7,549 nt of DNA from IMG/VR virus record IMGVR_UViG_2675903665_000006; one strand, 5' to 3'. The translations under genes were made by a program, and so were the position numbers. The stretch comes from a virus. Its lineage: Duplodnaviria; Heunggongvirae; Uroviricota; Caudoviricetes. The notes beneath the pieces are model-generated. The model was given only the letters and a program-made list of their open reading frames with translations. It was not told the DNA's origin and did no database searches. Positions 1 to 7,549 of this stretch are shown here, piece after piece (position 1 is the first letter of the stretch; every line of letters starts with the position of its first letter).

Positions 1-192
1 GATGTTCAAATCATCTCATACAAAAAATACGAAAATCAGTAACGGCTAGAAATCATTCAATACATGCACTCTCGAAATTGCATCAGCCAACCGCAGAACG
101 TTATTTCAAAGCCTACTAGCTGCCTTACTTTTTTCCTCAATAACACGTCGCCAGCAGGAAACAACCTAATCCCTGTTTTGGGCCTCAAAGTT

Positions 193-211
193 GCTAATGA
201 TAATCATTTTC
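193..211 (+). promoter_or_regulatory. Fur box (iron-dependent repressor operator) upstream of sitA
   Basis: GCTAATGATAATCATTTTC matches the 19-bp Fur consensus GATAATGATAATCATTATC at 17 of 19 positions (counted by hand); lies ~80-95 bp upstream of the sitA start. Confidence 0.6.
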
Positions 212-235
212 ATTTTATATAGGTTGTGCTATAAA
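206..235 (+). promoter_or_regulatory. Putative sigma70 promoter core for the sit operon (weak -35 inside the Fur box, -10 TATAAA at 230-235)
   Basis: TATAAA at 230-235 is a 5/6 match to TATAAT, with a poor -35 about 17-18 bp upstream overlapping the Fur box and the MntR palindrome starting at the -10 edge. Hexamer choice is uncertain; other candidates exist. Confidence 0.25.
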
Positions 236-255
236 ACATAGCCGTTGCTATGTTT
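234..255 (+). promoter_or_regulatory. MntR-type operator (Mn-responsive repressor site)
   Basis: Perfect inverted repeat AAACATAGC-cgtt-GCTATGTTT seen directly, between the Fur box and the sitA start; it resembles the enterobacterial MntR operator as I recall it. Confidence 0.55.
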
Positions 256-287
256 GTTCTAATTTTGCTCACTATAGGTACTAAATT

Positions 288-1202
288 ATGCACTCGATAA
301 AAAAAGTAACCATGCTCTTGGGGGGCCTCGCACTCACCTGCTCGATCGCATTTCAGGCAAGTGCAACTGAAAAATTCAAGGTCATTACAACATTTACCAT
401 CATCGCGGATATGGCCAAAAACGTGGCGGGAGATGCTGCAGAAGTCTCATCTATAACCAAGCCTGGTGCAGAAATTCATGAGTATCAGCCTACCCCTGGC
501 GATATTAAACGTGCGCAGGGGGCACAACTGATTCTCGCCAATGGTATGAATCTGGAATTGTGGTTCCAACGCTTTTACCAGCATCTCAATGGGGTTCCAG
601 AAGTAATTGTCTCTTCGGGTGTGACGCCTGTAGGGATCACCGAAGGACCCTATGAGGGCAAACCTAACCCCCATGCATGGATGTCGCCAGATAATGCTCT
701 GATTTACGTCGATAATATTCGTGATGCGTTGATAAAATACGATCCGGCAAATGCACAAACCTACCAACGCAATGCCGATACTTATAAAGCCAAGATTACC
801 CAAACCCTTGCCCCCCTGCGTAAGCAGATTACGGAACTCCCTGAGAATCAGCGGTGGATGGTCACCAGTGAAGGGGCTTTTTCTTATCTCGCACGCGATT
901 TGGGGCTAAAAGAGCTTTATCTGTGGCCGATTAATGCCGATCAACAAGGAACACCGCAGCAGGTACGTAAGGTTGTTGATATAGTTAAGAAAAATCATAT
1001 CCCGGCAGTCTTTAGCGAGAGTACGATTTCCGATAAACCAGCGCGTCAGGTTGCGCGTGAAACCGGCGCACACTACGGCGGTGTGCTCTATGTCGATTCC
1101 CTGAGCACAGAAAACGGCCCGGTACCGACATATATCGACCTTCTTAAGGTTACTACCAGTACGCTGGTACAGGGAATTAAAGCCGGGAAAAGGGAGAAAT
1201 AA
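288..1202 (+). CDS. sitA: Periplasmic Mn2+/Fe2+-binding protein of an ABC transporter (cluster A-I, TroA/PsaA/YfeA-like), 304 aa
   Basis: ORF with an N-terminal signal peptide (basic n-region KK, hydrophobic core [19 protein letters not shown] cleavage-like motif). Candidate metal ligands in [19 protein letters not shown] and YVDSLS. Weak SD (AGGT, 8-nt spacer). An alternative ATG at 312 lacks the basic n-region. Confidence 0.9.
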
Positions 1203-2029
1203 TGATGCAATCTGCAGGCATTGTCGTTAATGATGTTGCTGTCACCTGGCGTAACGGGCACACAGCACTGCGCGATGCATCCTTCACAGTACCAAGTGGA
1301 TCTATTGCCGCTCTGGTTGGGGTAAACGGTTCCGGAAAATCGACGTTGTTTAAAGCGATTATGGGATTTGTGCGTCTGACCAGCGGAAAGATATCTGTTC
1401 TGGGTATTCCCACGCGACAGGCGTTACAGAAAAACCTGGTTGCCTACGTCCCTCAGTCAGAAGAGGTTGACTGGTCATTTCCTGTACTGGTGGAAGATGT
1501 GGTGATGATGGGCCGCTATGGGCATATGGGTATGTTGCGTATCGCCAAAAAGAGGGATCGTCAAATTGTCACCGATGCGCTAGAACGTGTCGATATGGTG
1601 AATTTTCGCCATCGACAAATCGGCGAGCTTTCCGGTGGACAAAAGAAACGCGTCTTTCTGGCGAGAGCGATTGCACAGCAGGGTGATGTGATCCTGCTGG
1701 ATGAACCTTTTACTGGCGTTGATGTGAAAACCGAAGCCAAAATCATCAGCCTGTTGAGGGAGTTACGCGCGGAAGGCAAAACGATGCTTGTCTCAACGCA
1801 CAATCTCGGATCCGTCACGACATTTTGCGATTATACGGTCATGGTCAAAGGCACCGTCCTGGCAAGCGGGCCGACAGACACCACTTTTACAGCCGAGAAC
1901 CTGGAGCTGGCTTTTAGCGGCGTACTGCGCCATGTCACACTTAACGGCTCGGAAGAAAGCATTATTACTGACGATGAACGCCCTTTTGTGGCTCATCGAC
2001 CGTCAGCGGTGCAGAGGGAAGAAAGATGA
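1202..2029 (+). CDS. sitB: ABC transporter ATP-binding subunit for Mn2+/Fe2+ import, 275 aa
   Basis: Walker [13 protein letters not shown] signature LSGGQKKR, Walker B ILLDEP, H-loop STHNL. SD GGGAG upstream; the ATG overlaps the sitA stop (TAATG). Confidence 0.9.
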
Positions 2030-2883
2030 ACGTGCTACTGGAACCCTTCAGCTATGAATATATGCTCAATGCGATGTGGGTCTCGGCGATGGTCGGCGGT
2101 CTCTGCGCTTTCCTGTCATGCTATCTGATGCTAAAAGGCTGGTCGCTGATTGGCGATGCGTTGTCGCACTCTATTGTCCCGGGTGTTGCGGGGGCATATA
2201 TGCTGGGGCTTCCGTTTTCTCTGGGAGCCTTCTTTTCCGGCGGACTGGCTGCGGGCAGCATGCTGTTTCTTAACCAACGCACCCGCTTAAAAGAAGATGC
2301 CATCATCGGCCTGATCTTCTCGTCCTTTTTTGGCCTGGGGCTGTTTATGGTGTCATTGAACCCGACATCTGTGAACATTCAGACCATCGTCCTGGGCAAT
2401 ATTCTGGCAATCGATCCGGCGGATATCCTGCAACTCACTATCATTGGCATTCTCTCGATCATCGTGCTTTTTTTCAAATGGAAAGATCTTATGGTGACCT
2501 TTTTCGACGAGAATCACGCCCGTGCTATTGGATTGCATCCGGGCAGATTAAAACTCCTCTTCTTCACCCTGCTGTCGGTTTCGACCGTTGCGGCGCTGCA
2601 AACGGTTGGTGCCTTTCTGGTGATCTGTCTGGTGGTGACTCCCGGAGCAACAGCATGGTTGTTAACCGATCGTTTTCCCCGCCTGCTCATGATTGCTGTA
2701 ACTATTGGCAGTGTAACCAGTTTCCTCGGCGCGTGGGTCAGTTACTTTCTGGACGGCGCGACAGGTGGAATCATCGTGGTGGCGCAGACACTGCTGTTTC
2801 TTTTAGCATTTGTCTTTGCGCCCACCCATGGGCTTTTGGCAAATCGTCGGCGTGCGCATAAGGCGCTGGAGGATCGCTCATGA
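2026..2883 (+). CDS. sitC: ABC-3 family metal permease subunit, 285 aa
   Basis: Highly hydrophobic polytopic protein; its start overlaps the sitB stop (ATGA), indicating translational coupling; same length and architecture as the adjacent paralogue. Confidence 0.88.
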
Positions 2884-3737
2884 TGGCATTATTACTGGAG
2901 CCACTGCAGTTCACCTTTATAAGTCACGCACTGCTGATTTCACTGGTAGTTTCCATACCCTGTGCGCTGCTGTCGGTCTTTCTGGTCCTGAAAGGTTGGG
3001 CACTGATGGGTGACGCGATGAGTCATGCGGTTTTTCCTGGCATCGTGCTTGCCTGGATTCTGGGGTTACCTTTGGCTACAGGGGCATTCGTCGCCGGAGT
3101 ATTCTGCGCGGTGGCGACGGGATACCTGAAAGACAACAGCCGAATCAAGCAAGATACAGTGATGGGGATTGTTTTTTCTGGCATGTTTGCCGCAGGTCTG
3201 ATCTTGTATATTGCAGTCAAACCAGACGTACATCTTGACCATATTCTTTTCGGCGACATGCTCGGGATAACCATCGGCGATATAATCCAGACGGTGATTA
3301 TTGCTGGGCTGGTTACACTTGTTATTAGCGTAAAATGGCGAGATTTTTTGCTGTTCAGCTTTGATTATCAACAGGCGCAGGTAAGCGGTTTGCATACGAG
3401 ATGGCTGCATTATGGGCTGCTGTGCATGGTCTCTATGACCATTGTGGCGACGCTGAAAGCGGTAGGTATCATTCTCTCCATTTCTCTGCTCATTGCGCCT
3501 GGCGCCATTGCGGTACTCCTGACACAACGCTTTCATATTGCGCTCCTACTGGCGACTGGCATATCGGTAATAGTGTCAATGACTGGTGTCTGGTTGTCCT
3601 TTTTTATCGACAGCGCACCAGCTCCGACGATTGTCGTCTTATTCGCGGTTTTGTTCATCATGACGTTTGCCGTTACCAGCATCAACGCACGCAAAAAGGG
3701 AAACTCCCATACACAGGATCTGTTATCACCCAATTAG
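2880..3737 (+). CDS. sitD: ABC-3 family metal permease subunit, 285 aa
   Basis: Paralogue of the preceding permease (shared motifs such as LKGW.L.GDA.SH..PG); its start overlaps the sitC stop (ATGA); stop TAG at 3735-3737. Confidence 0.88.
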   Translation: MMALLLEPLQFTFISHALLISLVVSIPCALLSVFLVLKGWALMGDAMSHAVFPGIVLAWILGLPLATGAFVAGVFCAVATGYLKDNSRIKQDTVMGIVFSGMFAAGLILYIAVKPDVHLDHILFGDMLGITIGDIIQTVIIAGLVTLVISVKWRDFLLFSFDYQQAQVSGLHTRWLHYGLLCMVSMTIVATLKAVGIILSISLLIAPGAIAVLLTQRFHIALLLATGISVIVSMTGVWLSFFIDSAPAPTIVVLFAVLFIMTFAVTSINARKKGNSHTQDLLSPN

Positions 3738-3784
3738 CACAACATCCGAGAACAGCAACACCCGATACTTTTTCCTGGCTTCCA

Positions 3785-3809
3785 GCAACGGGGTTTCTTC
3801 CTCCGTTGC
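3785..3809. terminator. Weak hairpin in the convergent intergenic gap between sitD and the small membrane-protein gene
   Basis: GCAACGG (3785-3791) and CCGTTGC (3803-3809) form a 7-bp stem with an 11-nt loop. No adjacent U-run on either strand (the nearest T-run is at 3823-3829), so any terminator function is doubtful. Confidence 0.2.
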
Positions 3810-3828
3810 ATATACAGCTCACCTTTTT

Positions 3829-4128
3829 TCACCCACGATTAACCAACAGCCAGACCAGCAGACACGCCACCACCGGCACAGCAAAATCCATCAGGCTTGC
3901 CACATCCCAAACACGCGGATCAAAACCGCCCCACCACGGCATGTTAATCCGCTTGCCATGCCCGAACATTTCAATCCAGCGATATTCTGCCTGGGTGTGT
4001 TCACGCGCAATGAAGAACGTACAACCGGCTATCGCTCCGTAAGCCCAGTTCCCGGTAAAAAGACCAATCAGTAGCTGCGCAGCCACAGCACAAAGAGCAT
4101 GAAGGAAAGGTGTTATATCCATTTTCAT
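3829..4128 (-). CDS. Small inner-membrane protein of unknown function, ~97-102 aa, two predicted TM helices
   Basis: Clean ORF with two hydrophobic helices (FLHALCAVAAQLLIGLFTGNWAYGAIAGCTFFI and FAVPVVACLLVWLLV) flanking a charged, Trp-rich loop (REHTQAEYRWIEMFGHGKRINMPWWGGFDPRVWD). The track start at 4137 is TTG; in-frame ATGs lie at 4128 and 4122, the latter with AGGA 5 nt upstream. The overlapping +-strand ORFs look like low-complexity noise. Confidence 0.55.
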   Translation of the reverse strand: MKMDITPFLHALCAVAAQLLIGLFTGNWAYGAIAGCTFFIAREHTQAEYRWIEMFGHGKRINMPWWGGFDPRVWDVASLMDFAVPVVACLLVWLLVNRG

Positions 4129-4140
4129 CCTACCCAATAA

Positions 4141-4167
4141 AACGGGGCGCTCGGCCCCTTAATATTA
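4141..4167 (-). terminator. Rho-independent terminator-like hairpin just downstream of the 346-aa fibre-like gene, possibly bidirectional
   Basis: GGGGC (4144-4148) and GCCCC (4154-4158) form a GC-rich stem with a 5-nt loop; on the - strand it is followed by GTTTTATT, on the + strand preceded by an A-run and followed by TTAATATTATTT. The stop of the 346-aa gene is at 4165-4167. Confidence 0.45.
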
Positions 4168-4190
4168 TTTAGACGCAAGCGCCGCCTCAA
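4162..4190 (-). promoter_or_regulatory. Putative sigma70 promoter for the small membrane-protein gene, embedded in the 3' end of the fibre-like gene
   Basis: On the - strand: TTGAGG (plus 4190-4185), 17-bp spacer, TAATAT (plus 4167-4162). Hexamers found by eye; unverified. Confidence 0.2.
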
Positions 4191-5205
4191 TTGCAGATAA
4201 TCTTTGTCTTAATTCTGCGTTTTCTTCTTCCAGTGCTGTTATTCTGTCGTCTGACTCTCTGACTACCTGAACAAGCAAGCCAGTAACACCAGAATAATCT
4301 ACAGTGTAATACCGTTCACCTTCTTCTCCATCTAATCCACTCCCGCCGTCTGGATATTTCATCATAGACCCTACGGCTTCGGGGATGGCTTCCAGGGTTT
4401 CTTGTGCAATAACACCAGCGTAAGGCATACCGTTTTCTTTAAGCGTGTATGTATAGCCGTTCATTTTACGAATGCGGTCGGTTGCATTATCGATCACCTG
4501 AATATTGTCTTTCAGATCCCGGTCAGAGCCTTGATTAAATGCACTTGCATTGCACGCGCCGTTAACCGTTAATTCGTAGGTATTGCTGGTAGTTTTCTGC
4601 GCATAGAACATATAAGCGCCACCATCAACACCGACTTCATAAACAACAGGACGGCTGGAGTTGCCCCACAATTGAGCAGTAACACCAGCATAAGCGGTTC
4701 CCTGTGTGTTTAATGTCATGGTTGACCCATGATTGGCATATTTGATCTGTAATGTGTCGGTGTAATCAAATTTAATAAGCGCGTTACTTCCACGCTTACT
4801 GTATGACATAAGGCAGTTACCCATTTTGAGGTATCCGCTGTCACCGGGAAAAATCATCGTACCGCCATAAAGGTTGGTAAAGTCCCAGCAAATGTTTGTC
4901 CCGTTATCGTTCAGGTTAAGGCGCGCCATTGCGTTACCTGGACTGTCTATCCATTTTTTGAGGTATAGTTCGCAATACGCATCCTCAACACCTGCCGTCC
5001 TGTGAGTTGAGCGGAGTTTTCTCCCAAATATAGCTCCGCTAGTTGGCAATACCTGCTGATACCATGAAGCAGACCAGTCACCAACGGTTTCATCTTTGCT
5101 GTCTACATATGATTTTGTTGCGTAGCTTCCTTGATCGTTTTTTAATTTGCTAACGTCGGATTTTAGCGTTTTGATGTCTTCAGGAATTACTGTCGATGTA
5201 GCCAT
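4165..5205 (-). CDS. Tail-fibre/tail-spike-like receptor-binding protein with a C-terminal Peptidase S74 intramolecular chaperone domain, 346 aa
   Basis: C-terminus SDRDLKDNIQVIDNATDRIRKMNGYTYTLKENGMPYAGVIAQETLEAIPEAV...ITALEEENAELRQRL fits the S74 auto-cleaving chaperone pattern (Ser/Lys dyad, GxIAQE, PExV, terminal coiled coil). LWGNSSRPVVYEVG resembles a P2 H-type fibre motif. SD GAGGA is 7 nt upstream of the ATG. Confidence 0.85.
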   Translation of the reverse strand: MATSTVIPEDIKTLKSDVSKLKNDQGSYATKSYVDSKDETVGDWSASWYQQVLPTSGAIFGRKLRSTHRTAGVEDAYCELYLKKWIDSPGNAMARLNLNDNGTNICWDFTNLYGGTMIFPGDSGYLKMGNCLMSYSKRGSNALIKFDYTDTLQIKYANHGSTMTLNTQGTAYAGVTAQLWGNSSRPVVYEVGVDGGAYMFYAQKTTSNTYELTVNGACNASAFNQGSDRDLKDNIQVIDNATDRIRKMNGYTYTLKENGMPYAGVIAQETLEAIPEAVGSMMKYPDGGSGLDGEEGERYYTVDYSGVTGLLVQVVRESDDRITALEEENAELRQRLSAIEAALASK

Positions 5206-5214
5206 TTTTCTTCC

Positions 5215-5496
5215 TCACATCCAGCCACGAAGTTGATGCTCAACAGCAACCACGTATTCATCGAATATTGACGATTTTTTTGCATCATTAATGATGCGCA
5301 CGTTTACAAAATATCCGTCTTCCTTAACACATACCGGCTCGCCATCTTCGGTAAGTTCTCCGGTTTCTTTGTACACGTTACCTATCACGTCAATAAGAAT
5401 ATCATCCTGCATCGACTCATCATCATAATAGCCGATACTCTCCATAAAGGCCGAAAAGTCGGCCCTGTCGACAAATTTGAGTGTTAAATCTTTCAT
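5215..5496 (-). CDS. Hypothetical acidic protein, 93 aa, translationally coupled to the upstream tail-fibre gene
   Basis: Its ATG overlaps the fibre gene stop (TAATG); its own stop overlaps the SD of the next gene; rich in Asp/Glu. No family recognised. Confidence 0.55.
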   Translation of the reverse strand: MKDLTLKFVDRADFSAFMESIGYYDDESMQDDILIDVIGNVYKETGELTEDGEPVCVKEDGYFVNVRIINDAKKSSIFDEYVVAVEHQLRGWM

Positions 5497-7102
5497 TAGA
5501 TTAACTCCCCCACCTGAGCATCAGTCAATGCCTTGTGCCATATTCTGAAATTCCTGACATGACCAAATAAATGACGTAACCCGGCTGTAGTCTGGCCTCC
5601 AATACGGATAATTGCGGTGTTCTGAATATAGGACCATGTGGCTTTTGTTTCGCTGGATATACGCCCGTTACTTACTGAGCACGTAGACTGATCTGACTTT
5701 ACACGCATCCCCATAACCATTTTTTCAAGCAATGCGTTTTCGTTTACCCGTCTGTTAGCTCCTCCAATATCGCAATAAGGAAATCCGTCATAATCTGTTG
5801 AACGACCGAAGCCAAGAATAATAGCCGCTCCGGTTTGATGACCACCGGTATCAAAAACACGTGGCGCTGCATTTGGCGTTTTATACCAGTTCTTATGTAC
5901 CTCACAAAGAACCGTAAAAGGAAGATTATAAAGGTTATTCTTGATTGGGACTGTCACCATATCGCTTGCGCGAGTGCTTGCAGTTATATCAGTTACAATA
6001 AATGACGAAGCACTTGATCCACCTTCCACTTGTGGAGTTGCGATATCCAGATAGTCTCCAGATGCTGTGCCTGAACCTTTTACTGGAGCATATTGAACCA
6101 TCGCACCAATCATGCTCTCTGTATCTAGTGCATTAATTGTAGCCTGATAGAAAATCCAACCAGTAGCCTCATCTTTTACAGCCTTTGCAATAATACGATT
6201 TGCTGCACCACCAGTCTTATCAATTACAAGTGTTGATAAATTGAGGTAAGCATCTCCCAAAAAAGTGTAAGTAGAACCATCATGATGTTCAAATCTTAAA
6301 CGACACCTTATATTTTCAACATCACTTCTGACACGGCATGAAATGGTCACATATTTTTCATCACCTGTGACATCAAATCCTTTACTGCCAGAAACCGTTA
6401 CGATATTAATCGCACTTGTCTGATCAATAAGAGTATCTTTTACAGTAAATCTCCCATAAGTAAAATTAAAAGAATCCGTGGATATTTCTGTGAGTTCCAG
6501 ATTGCCTGACTTATTCCATTTAGATGGATTTGTTGAATTAAGCAGAAGATTAGTTCTTTGCCCCTCAATAAGCAGGCCATCACGTTCAAATCGCGGCTCG
6601 TCAATGGCAGCCTCTGTCAGTACACCAGATTTATTAATATAGGTTGCTTTCGATGCGCGTTTAAACTTAACAACCTTGTCACCAGGCATCGTTATTTCAT
6701 CATCACCAATAACAATCTTTTTATATGATGGCGAAAAGCCCGTAATCATATCCAGTGAATCGTTAAACGGTATCCACACATCTGGAAGCGGCTGCAAAAC
6801 TTGTTTATACGGCTCCGCAGCCTGGCTTGCATACTCTCTGGCTGCGTCTTCACTTGCTTTTGCAGCCGTCTGGCTTGCAGCGGATGCTTTCGCCGAGTTA
6901 GCCGCCGCAGTCTCGCTCGCCTTTGCGTTGGTTTCACTGGTTTTTGCAGCTTTTTGACTGTTGGCTGATGCAGTGGCAGAAGAAGCCGCCGCACTTGCAG
7001 AACCAGCTGCGGCACTCTCGCTTTGGGCTGCAGCATCCTGACTGTTTTTCGCCGCAGTTTCACTGGCTTTGGCATTCGACCAAAACGGGAAGCTAATCGC
7101 AT
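5496..7102 (-). CDS. Stf-like side tail-fibre protein, N-terminally truncated: Ala/Ser-rich repeat region plus a C-terminal LamG/ConA-like lectin-type domain; start unresolved, possibly a pseudogene
   Basis: The body frame is open from 7115 to the stop at 5496-5498 and encodes ...AKASETAAKNSQDAAAQSESAAAGSASAAASSATASANSQKAAKTSETNAKASETAAANSAKASAASQTAAKASEDAAREYA..., typical of lambdoid Stf fibres, ending FGHVRNFRIWHKALTDAQVGELI (LamG-like tail). The only SD+ATG (AGGAG, ATG at 7102-7100) is one base out of frame; the first canonical in-frame start is TTG at 6797. Confidence 0.7.
6800..7080 (-). repeat. Degenerate short tandem repeats encoding the Ala/Ser/Thr-rich (AAKxSETxA-type) fibre shaft
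   Basis: Reiterated imperfect units such as cgccgcagtctcgctcgcctttgc and cgccgcagtttcactggctttggc on the + strand; translation on the - strand gives repeating A-K-A/T-S-E-T-A-A motifs. Confidence 0.5.
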
Positions 7103-7161
7103 AACAGTAACTCCTTTATGAAGGCATAAAATTAATAAAATTTTTTTCGCTTAATATCATC

Positions 7162-7203
7162 CCCCTCGGTTATCGTTAACAAAAAGACAACAATTCCGAG
7201 GGG
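7162..7203. other. Inverted repeat (8-bp arms, 26-nt loop) in the intergenic region upstream of the tail-fibre gene
   Basis: CCCCTCGG (7162-7169) and CCGAGGGG (7196-7203) are exact reverse complements; the loop contains GTTAAC; an AT-rich tract (7110-7150) follows on the - strand before the fibre SD. Confidence 0.4.
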
Positions 7204-7211
7204 AAGGACCA

Positions 7212-7508
7212 TCAAATCAGGTCAGTTCGGGACTGACCAACCTGCCGAGTGAAAAGCAGTAACAGCGCGATCAACTCATCAGCGTTTTTTCTGACAAGAG
7301 GAGTATGATTCTCCAGGCTATCCAGTAAGTCATGCAGCTCATTATTGACCTGGTGGAGCACCTTAAAGAGTGCACCAGAATCCCGGCAGCTCTGATATGC
7401 AAGATTTGCCTGAACAGCACGATTCTGCATGATCCCGATTTGTGCGATTGCGTCTTTCTGCTGATCGCCTGTTGGCTGATAAGTGGTGTTAAAAGAAAAT
7501 GCGCTCAT
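7212..7508 (-). CDS. Hypothetical protein, 98 aa, phage-associated by context
   Basis: ORF with strong SD (AGGAGG, ~5 nt spacer) before the ATG at 7508-7506; stop TGA at 7214-7212; predicted largely helical; no family recognised. Confidence 0.55.
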   Translation of the reverse strand: MSAFSFNTTYQPTGDQQKDAIAQIGIMQNRAVQANLAYQSCRDSGALFKVLHQVNNELHDLLDSLENHTPLVRKNADELIALLLLFTRQVGQSRTDLI

Positions 7509-7549
7509 AATTCCTCCTGTATCTGATGTTTTCAGCCCCCATCATCTGT

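Follow-up and report, generated by a model that had tools for sequence, protein, structure and literature searches.

The window analysed here comprises the whole of a 7.5-kb draft contig (AOQY01000105.1, 7,549 nt), so flanking sequence does not exist. Four plus-strand genes between positions 288 and 3737, all intact (4/4), overlap by 1–4 nt in the layout of a single operon (Table 1). Judged by sequence, they are a Sit-type ABC importer, sitABCD: the RefSeq homologues of sitA carry the annotation SitA, and sitB reached 591.9 bits against NF011630, "manganese/iron ABC transporter ATP-binding protein" (cut-off 393). The four-gene plan, with a ZnuA-fold binding protein, an ATPase and two ABC-3 permeases, matches that of Salmonella SitABCD and of the MntABC/PsaABC cluster A-I importers. 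From what is established for Sit/MntABC-type transporters, the encoded system would transport Mn2+ and Fe2+.

Table 1. Features of the 7,549-nt window.
Feature	Position	Strand	Evidence
Fur box GCTAATGATAATCATTTTC, upstream of sitA	193–211	+	2 mismatches to 19-nt Fur consensus
MntR-type palindrome AAACATAGC-N4-GCTATGTTT, upstream of sitA	234–255	+	perfect match
sitA, periplasmic metal-binding protein	288–1202	+	PF01297 ZnuA, 8.9e-86, residues 32–295 of 304 aa
sitB, ABC ATPase	1202–2029	+	PF00005; NCBIfam equivalog NF011630
sitC, ABC-3 permease	2026–2883	+	PF00950, 5.6e-83
sitD, ABC-3 permease	2880–3737	+	PF00950, 1.1e-75
Hairpin in 91-nt convergent spacer between sitD and phage genes, possible terminator only	3785–3809	+	centroid stem of fold
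Small phage membrane protein	3829–4122 (97 aa, public assemblies) or to TTG 4137 (102 aa)	-	phrog_1443, 1.2e-58
GC-rich hairpin then GTTTTATT, terminator-like, 3' of 346-aa fibre gene	4144–4158	-	terminator scan
346-aa tail fibre protein with C-terminal intramolecular chaperone domain	4165–5205	-	phrog_4563 full length, 1.9e-214; PF13884 Peptidase_S74, 6.5e-14
93-aa phage protein, no assigned function, after side tail fibre gene	5215–5496	-	phrog_1361, 1.7e-46
Side tail fibre (stf), 5'-truncated	5496–7078	-	phrog_1419 positions 265–793 of 793; NF048003 spike-fibre domain
Phage/plasmid junction	7076–7078		3-nt CGA microhomology, three-way alignment
F-type plasmid leading-region fragment	7076–7549	-	100% identity to many F-type plasmids

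Two operator sequences were read directly in the region upstream of sitA, a Fur box and a palindrome that is a putative MntR site by comparison with the mntH and sitA operators. The Fur-box match was found in 0 of 200 shuffles, and 0 copies of the palindrome are expected by chance (200 shuffles). The sitA promoter of Salmonella has a similar Fur and MntR operator logic. Given the established knowledge of both regulators, sit in the window is putatively under metal regulation via Fur and MntR. The sigma-70 scan called no promoter at the Fur box, and promoter calls over the window were at background (13 vs. 12.1 expected). Downstream of the operon, neither the terminator scan nor folding found a canonical intrinsic terminator between sit and the phage genes. 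The terminator reading of the spacer hairpin is weak, since the T run lies 14 nt off and the fold gives a z-score of just −0.99, and the hairpin behind the 346-aa fibre gene is only suggestive, since its −11.7 kcal/mol gives a z-score of −1.09. The terminator scan of the window was mildly enriched (12 vs. 6.9 ± 2.5), while the Rfam and tRNA scans of the window returned no matches.

Lambdoid tail-fibre genes occupy the minus strand from 3829 to 7078 and face sitABCD. The convergence of a plus-strand sit operon on a minus-strand phage fibre module, as proposed in the earlier note, was thus borne out by the coordinates (288–3737 vs. 3829–7078) and by the family matches. The membrane-protein gene is the final phage gene ahead of the cargo slot and the counterpart of gp24 of phage 21 ("putative membrane protein"), and the 93-aa gene is equivalent in position to gp23 of that phage. 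As far as 7078, the stf gene shows 100% identity to its 792-aa counterpart in strain CH4811; the first ~264 codons are missing here, and the earliest in-frame start codon is a TTG at 6797. No intact prophage occupies the locus: stf lacks residues 1–264, and the sequence upstream of 7078 belongs to an F-plasmid leading region. The only repeats recovered by a search of the window were those already known within the fibre collar region, and none resembled att sites. Membership of a prophage in the source strain is assigned by homology only, since the contig contains no integrase, att site or further phage genes. The "prophage" placed beside sit in the same note therefore holds as regards the phage genes, but these are only a fragment, which breaks off within the fibre gene, where plasmid DNA takes over. 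Likewise, the span 190–7549, described there as sit plus phage module, is correct up to 7078, but 7076–7549 is F-type plasmid DNA with 100% identity.

The base composition differs along the window. The fibre region 5500–6700 had been seen by eye as more AT-rich than the sit genes, and the calculation agreed, with a GC content of 0.410 compared with 0.503 for sit (41% vs. 50%; chi-square p = 4e-8). GC3 is 0.33 in the fibre gene and 0.48–0.61 in the sit genes. The low GC belongs to the receptor-binding part of the fibre, and sit has a GC content typical of E. coli. Composition as a sign of foreign sit was rejected: the operon is host-like at 50% GC, and the fibre is the AT-rich part. Since the sit GC is host-typical, the contrast is no evidence of a foreign origin of the operon.

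The Salmonella sit operon lies at the edge of SPI-1, outside any phage, while sit in the window has a phage-type setting. Isolated, viable lambdoid phages (phage 21, ev207, ev017, Perceval, Lambda_ev058 and others) carry sitABCD between the side-tail-fibre module and attP, and carriage of close homologues in a packaged genome was observed directly for phage 21 and >20 other isolated phages. In phage 21 (OL657228), whose linear, cos-ended genome contains sit, the order is stf, gp23, gp24 (membrane), sitDCBA, about 1.9 kb, attP and int, and window 1–4123 matches it with 99.0% identity. In strain 536, where an icd' duplication marks the prophage end, sit is flanked by fibre genes on one side and by this duplication on the other, and the same gene order is found at a second chromosomal site adjoining uspF/ompN. 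The junction of sitD with the membrane-protein gene occurs in 1187 of 5426 complete E. coli genomes. Phage 21 and the icd-site "PAI-icd" prophages (536, CFT073) share with the window the operon, its upstream region, the downstream membrane gene and the convergent placement of sit behind the fibre genes. The fibre modules differ, in that phage 21 and strain 536 lack the 346-aa S74 fibre gene and have another C-terminus of stf; compared with phage 21 and the PAI-icd prophages, the window in turn lacks every tail gene upstream of stf as well as the N-terminal part of stf itself. As reported, sitABCD, each time preceded by a fur box, is borne by 70% of the lambda phages of E. coli from the infant gut (PMC6969025), and many ExPEC have a PAI-icd with Iss and Sit (PMC7545054). 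The sit–phage association is thus already published (PMC6969025, PMC2808357, PMC7545054), and the finding is correct but ordinary, since the arrangement is documented in isolated phages and in >1000 E. coli genomes.

Exchange of cargo at one slot was also directly observed. Over 3914–7078, the fibre module and membrane gene of the window are identical to those of lambdoid prophages in strains CH4811 and L1PEag1, which lie at the uspF/ompN (Rac-side) locus. Their slot contains cdtABC-IV, an alpha/beta hydrolase and an omptin, and sit is absent from it; beside uspF, there is only a divergent sitD-like pseudogene with 63–72% amino acid identity across matching segments. Homology of both prophages to the window ends at 3836, 7 nt past the stop codon of the membrane gene. 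L013 has the identical fibre module followed by another cargo. Outside the window, the exact 417-aa fibre C-terminus adjoins cdt-IV in five places and a different cargo in a sixth, and two short contigs show no cargo downstream of it. Since the identical fibre module exists with other cargo, the content of the slot is dispensable and exchangeable. Carriage by isolated phages, the match to phage 21 and this swapping together support sit as horizontally acquired, phage-associated cargo, as the earlier note had suggested.

The contig itself is a three-part mosaic (1–3910, 3914–7078 and 7076–7549), each part being 100% identical to a different source. Window 1–3910 has 0 mismatches to the icd-site prophage of strain 536, and mismatch maps place the crossover inside the membrane-protein gene at about 3910–3914. 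The plasmid part, annotated from NZ_CP014112.1 as the region between the traM/oriT-side genes and psiB, contains a DUF932 gene reduced to its first 9 codons (ATG at 7102; the protein starts MRLASRFGR), a 98-aa hypothetical gene (7212–7508) and sequence upstream of the latter. Both stf and the plasmid DUF932 gene are truncated by the junction. Exact 61-nt and 26-nt patterns of this phage/plasmid junction were absent from the GTDB representative genomes and the JGI metagenome contigs, BLAST against PLSDB and complete E. coli genomes returned no record that crosses it, and no PLSDB plasmid spans region 6850–7300. PLSDB matches with both sit and fibre genes were considered as plasmid carriage of the phage end and rejected: pMS20655A holds minE, bluF and ymg genes, and the presence of these chromosomal genes means that it is no evidence for plasmid carriage.

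The reading that we favour, with a probability of about 0.9 for the joint claim, is that sitABCD in the window belongs to a temperate phage of the lambda type as a lysogenic-conversion ("moron") operon, and that this copy of the phage was cut, recombined and joined to plasmid DNA. The operon would fill the accessory slot where the late operon ends, with the side-tail-fibre module and the membrane-protein gene directly before it and attP behind it. It is oriented against the phage late genes and would bring its own host-regulated control, in which a Fur box over the likely promoter is followed by the MntR palindrome. With a control region of this host type, a lysogen would express the Mn2+/Fe2+ importer under metal scarcity, independently of the phage cycle. 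The operon would be spread among E. coli and Shigella by the phage and by recombination between related prophages. As to the contig, recombination within the membrane-protein gene would have linked a 536-like sit block to a fibre module that shows no difference from that of a uspF-side prophage; the fibre gene would then have been cut at about codon 265 and fused, via the 3-nt microhomology, to F-plasmid leading-region DNA.

The phage–plasmid junction could be that of a real recombinant or an assembly artefact. We tentatively entertain the former, in which the end of a sit-bearing lambdoid prophage with fibre remnants was fused to leading-region DNA of a conjugative F-type plasmid by illegitimate recombination at 3 nt of microhomology. 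The arrangement may be partly an artefact, since the three segments match three different sources with 0 mismatches each, and the plasmid junction has no second example in the collections searched. In that case, the assembler would have stitched together pieces of an F plasmid and of two distinct prophages of the strain, one a 536-like sit prophage and the other a cdt-type prophage with the fibre module of the window; sit would still be truly associated with the phage, but the fibre, sit and plasmid parts would not occur in this exact arrangement. Such a chimera would fit the small size of the contig (7.5 kb), its origin in a draft assembly, the lack of the junction in the four collections searched and the cargo beside the other copies of the exact fibre C-terminus, which is cdt-IV or a different cargo wherever it is visible. 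However, the parental types share only 29 nt (3914–3942) at the first crossover and 3 nt at the second junction, and stretches as short as these disfavour the usual long-k-mer repeat misjoin. In addition, the alleles interleave at 3910, 3911 and 3913, which resembles natural recombination or slightly different parents, and the contig was reported in 2 samples. A partial chimera was considered somewhat unlikely.

Two further explanations concern the neighbourhood of sit and the phage genes. The window could derive from a virulence plasmid of the ColV/ColBM type, on which sitABCD is well known to occur. Its right end is indeed F-type plasmid DNA, and sit is common on IncF plasmids; the region upstream of sit was matched at 990 places on plasmids. 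The sit region of pAPEC-O2-ColV (NC_007675) has the same operon with ~97% identity and, as in the window, linkage to an F-type plasmid. However, colinearity with the ColV/ColBM copies is limited to 91–3764: they share with the window only 91/100–3744/3764 at about 97%, and they have no fibre genes. These copies consist of the operon only, among IS elements and aerobactin genes and away from the leading region, with different flanks (a toxin–antitoxin pair, IS elements, iuc). Their upstream flank is of the uspF-site prophage type, whereas that of the window is of the 536 type, and the junction is spanned by no PLSDB plasmid. Such an origin is very improbable. The proposal that sit and the fibre genes are accidental neighbours, either as two independently inserted elements or through a prophage integrated beside a chromosomal sit locus, seems scarcely credible. 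It would agree with the host-like GC of sit (0.503) next to an AT-rich fibre region and with the ColV-type plasmids, which hold sit without phage genes. Against it, phage 21 and many isolated phages have sit between stf and attP, the same sit–phage junction is present at two chromosomal sites, icd and uspF, and sit in strain 536 is internal to the icd' duplication marking the prophage end. Independent insertion of the two modules as separate elements, the alternative that the earlier note had itself raised, fails on the same ground, as both travel inside one packaged phage genome.

The importance of phage-borne sit is already established, and the window adds only the clean swap of sit for the cdt-IV toxin behind an identical fibre module, together with a possible phage-to-plasmid junction. 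If true, this junction would be a caught intermediate in the passage of sitABCD from phages to conjugative virulence plasmids, which now keep the operon alone. Phage carriage of an Mn/Fe importer explains the patchy distribution of sit in E. coli and Shigella, at several chromosomal sites and on plasmids, and it ties the spread of the phage to fitness in metal-limited, oxidative host niches.

The sit operon encodes a binding protein with a ZnuA fold, two ABC-3 permeases and an ATPase that passed the NCBIfam equivalog 'manganese/iron ABC transporter ATP-binding protein' (591.9 bits, cut-off 393). Upstream of it lie a Fur box and a palindrome, both absent from shuffled sequence; the latter is a putative MntR operator, of the type known from mntH and sitA. 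Since neither a consensus promoter nor a clear intrinsic terminator was found by promoter and terminator scans and folding, transcriptional insulation of sit is only putative. Four phage genes on the minus strand converge on sitD, in agreement with the arrangement described in the earlier note.

Coordinates of the features in the window
Feature	Positions	Strand or place	Detail
Fur box	193-211	upstream of sit	2 mismatches to consensus
Palindrome	234-255	upstream of sit	AAACATAGC-N4-GCTATGTTT, perfect
sitABCD, four overlapping genes	288-3737	+	Sit-type metal ABC importer
Small membrane protein	3829-4137	-	phrog_1443
346-aa tail fibre protein	4165-5205	-	Peptidase_S74 chaperone domain
93-aa phage protein	5215-5496	-	phrog_1361
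Side tail fibre gene (stf)	5496-7078	-	PHROG family match, positions 265-793 only

The restricted PHROG match of stf, together with a first in-frame start only at TTG 6797, indicates that the gene is 5'-truncated. The S74-chaperone fibre protein is encoded separately, after stf and the 93-aa gene, whereas phage 21 and E. coli 536 both lack it, which points to a side fibre that has two parts or is branched in the phage lineage of the window module. The phrog_1443 gene is conserved, always lies between fibre genes and cargo, and has ahead of it a GC-rich hairpin that ends in a T-rich tail (4144-4158). Cargo switches at this gene, which may be a moron (phage accessory cargo) in its own right or else a recombination linker.

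The by-eye impression that the fibre receptor-binding region is AT-rich was correct, with 41.0% GC at 5500-6700 vs 50.3% in sit (chi-square p = 4e-8) and a fibre gene GC3 of 0.33. The anomalous composition belongs to this region and sit is host-like; the contrast was therefore rejected as evidence for a foreign sit.

The sit and phage genes belong to one element. In a search of deposited phage genomes, many lambdoid phage isolates carried the sit block, among them phage 21, ev207, ev017, Perceval and Lambda_ev058, which rules against separate insertions of sit and fibre module. Phage 21, 99.0% identical to window 1-4123, is annotated in the order J - stf - gp23 - gp24 (membrane protein) - sitDCBA - about 1.9 kb - attP - int. 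The block of E. coli 536 matches window 1-3910 without a single mismatch and lies between fibre genes and the icd' duplication marking the end of the icd-integrated prophage, and the same gene order recurs with 96.5-97% identity at a second chromosomal site adjoining uspF/ompN in other strains. The sitD/membrane-gene junction was found in 1187 of 5426 complete E. coli genomes. A 150-kb PLSDB "plasmid", pMS20655A (NZ_CP082081.1), has the chromosomal genes minE, ymgD and bluF around an icd-type sit prophage and is probably a piece of chromosome that was mislabelled or misassembled.

The sit-phage association is already known. Of the lambda phages induced from infant-gut E. coli, 70% carried sitABCD, which was always accompanied by a fur box and was regarded as a moron (Mathieu et al. 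2020, PMC6969025); for prophage 042p3, sitABCD is listed as cargo located 'at the tail end' (Chaudhuri et al. 2010, PMC2808357). 'PAI-icd', comprising Iss as well as Sit, is described for many ExPEC in a review of E. coli islands, which also lists a Shigella 'PAI sit' at several sites (PMC7545054), and multigene virulence morons are noted in the phage 21 genome announcement (PMC9119081). ColV-type plasmids, in contrast, have only window 91-3764, without phage genes. The upstream flank of their sit copy (pAPEC-O2-ColV, locus L009 5861-9655, compared with locus L001) is common to the uspF-site prophage type, where homology runs on upstream for about 140 nt past its limit in the 536/phage 21 type; this sequence likeness hints at the phage lineage that donated sit to ColV plasmids.

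Prophages of strains CH4811 and L1PEag1 match window 3914-7078 base for base. Homology to them ends at 3836, 7 nt past the membrane-gene stop codon, and behind their fibre module comes a different cargo: cdtABC type IV together with an alpha/beta hydrolase and an omptin. Since 1-3910 and 3914-7078 are identical to different prophage types, the window is recombinant, with parents corresponding to the 536 icd-site prophage and a uspF-side prophage (CH4811 locus L006, 11737-14979) with a cytolethal distending toxin type IV operon as its cargo. Sequence comparison puts the crossover within the membrane-protein gene, around 3910-3914, where the parental types have only 29 identical bases in common and alleles interleave at 3910, 3911 and 3913. 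When the fibre C-terminus was looked up as an exact protein, eight places besides the window contig were returned, five with cdt-IV, one with another cargo and two on short contigs ending at the membrane-protein gene, with cargo out of view; sit cargo occurred only in the window contig. At the extreme end adjoining uspF, cdt-carrying prophages hold a frameshifted, divergent sitD-like permease remnant (CH4811, L006 3341-3956; 63-72% amino acid identity to window SitD over matching segments), suggesting that this slot formerly held a different sit-like operon.

Gene content, operator sequences and orientation opposite to the phage late genes are direct observations, and both carriage in packaged phages and modular cargo exchange at the slot are established, in support of sit as horizontally acquired phage cargo. 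By the established behaviour of Fur, MntR and Sit/MntABC transporters, the operon would be repressed in a lysogen by Fe-Fur and Mn-MntR and expressed under metal limitation; Sit would then import Mn2+ and Fe2+, helping against oxidative stress, and the phage would benefit through improved host fitness.

Contrary to the earlier note, the phage module stops short of 7549. The last 474 bases (7076-7549) are not prophage; they match leading-region DNA of many F-type plasmids at 100% identity. In plasmid NZ_CP014112.1 their counterpart is flanked by the oriT/traM side and psiB, and comprises the first part of a DUF932 gene plus a hypothetical gene of 98 aa. The DUF932 gene starts at ATG 7102 (MRLASRFGR) and, after 9 codons, is joined out of frame to stf via a 3-nt CGA microhomology. 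This unique phage/plasmid junction, the single unusual feature of the window, gave 0 records in PLSDB, complete E. coli genomes, GTDB representative genomes and JGI metagenome contigs. The window makes up the whole of contig AOQY01000105.1 (7549 bp) in draft assembly GCA_000397685.1, to which the view of the source strain is confined, and its three segments are each identical to a different source, as a chimeric assembly would produce. Nevertheless, the sequence shared at the joints is very short (29 nt and 3 nt), which argues for real recombination against a repeat-induced misjoin. A chimera is judged rather unlikely; the doubt touches only the contig-specific arrangement, leaving the sit-phage link unaffected. 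If real, the junction would catch sit in passage from a phage to a conjugative plasmid, a finding of modest interest.
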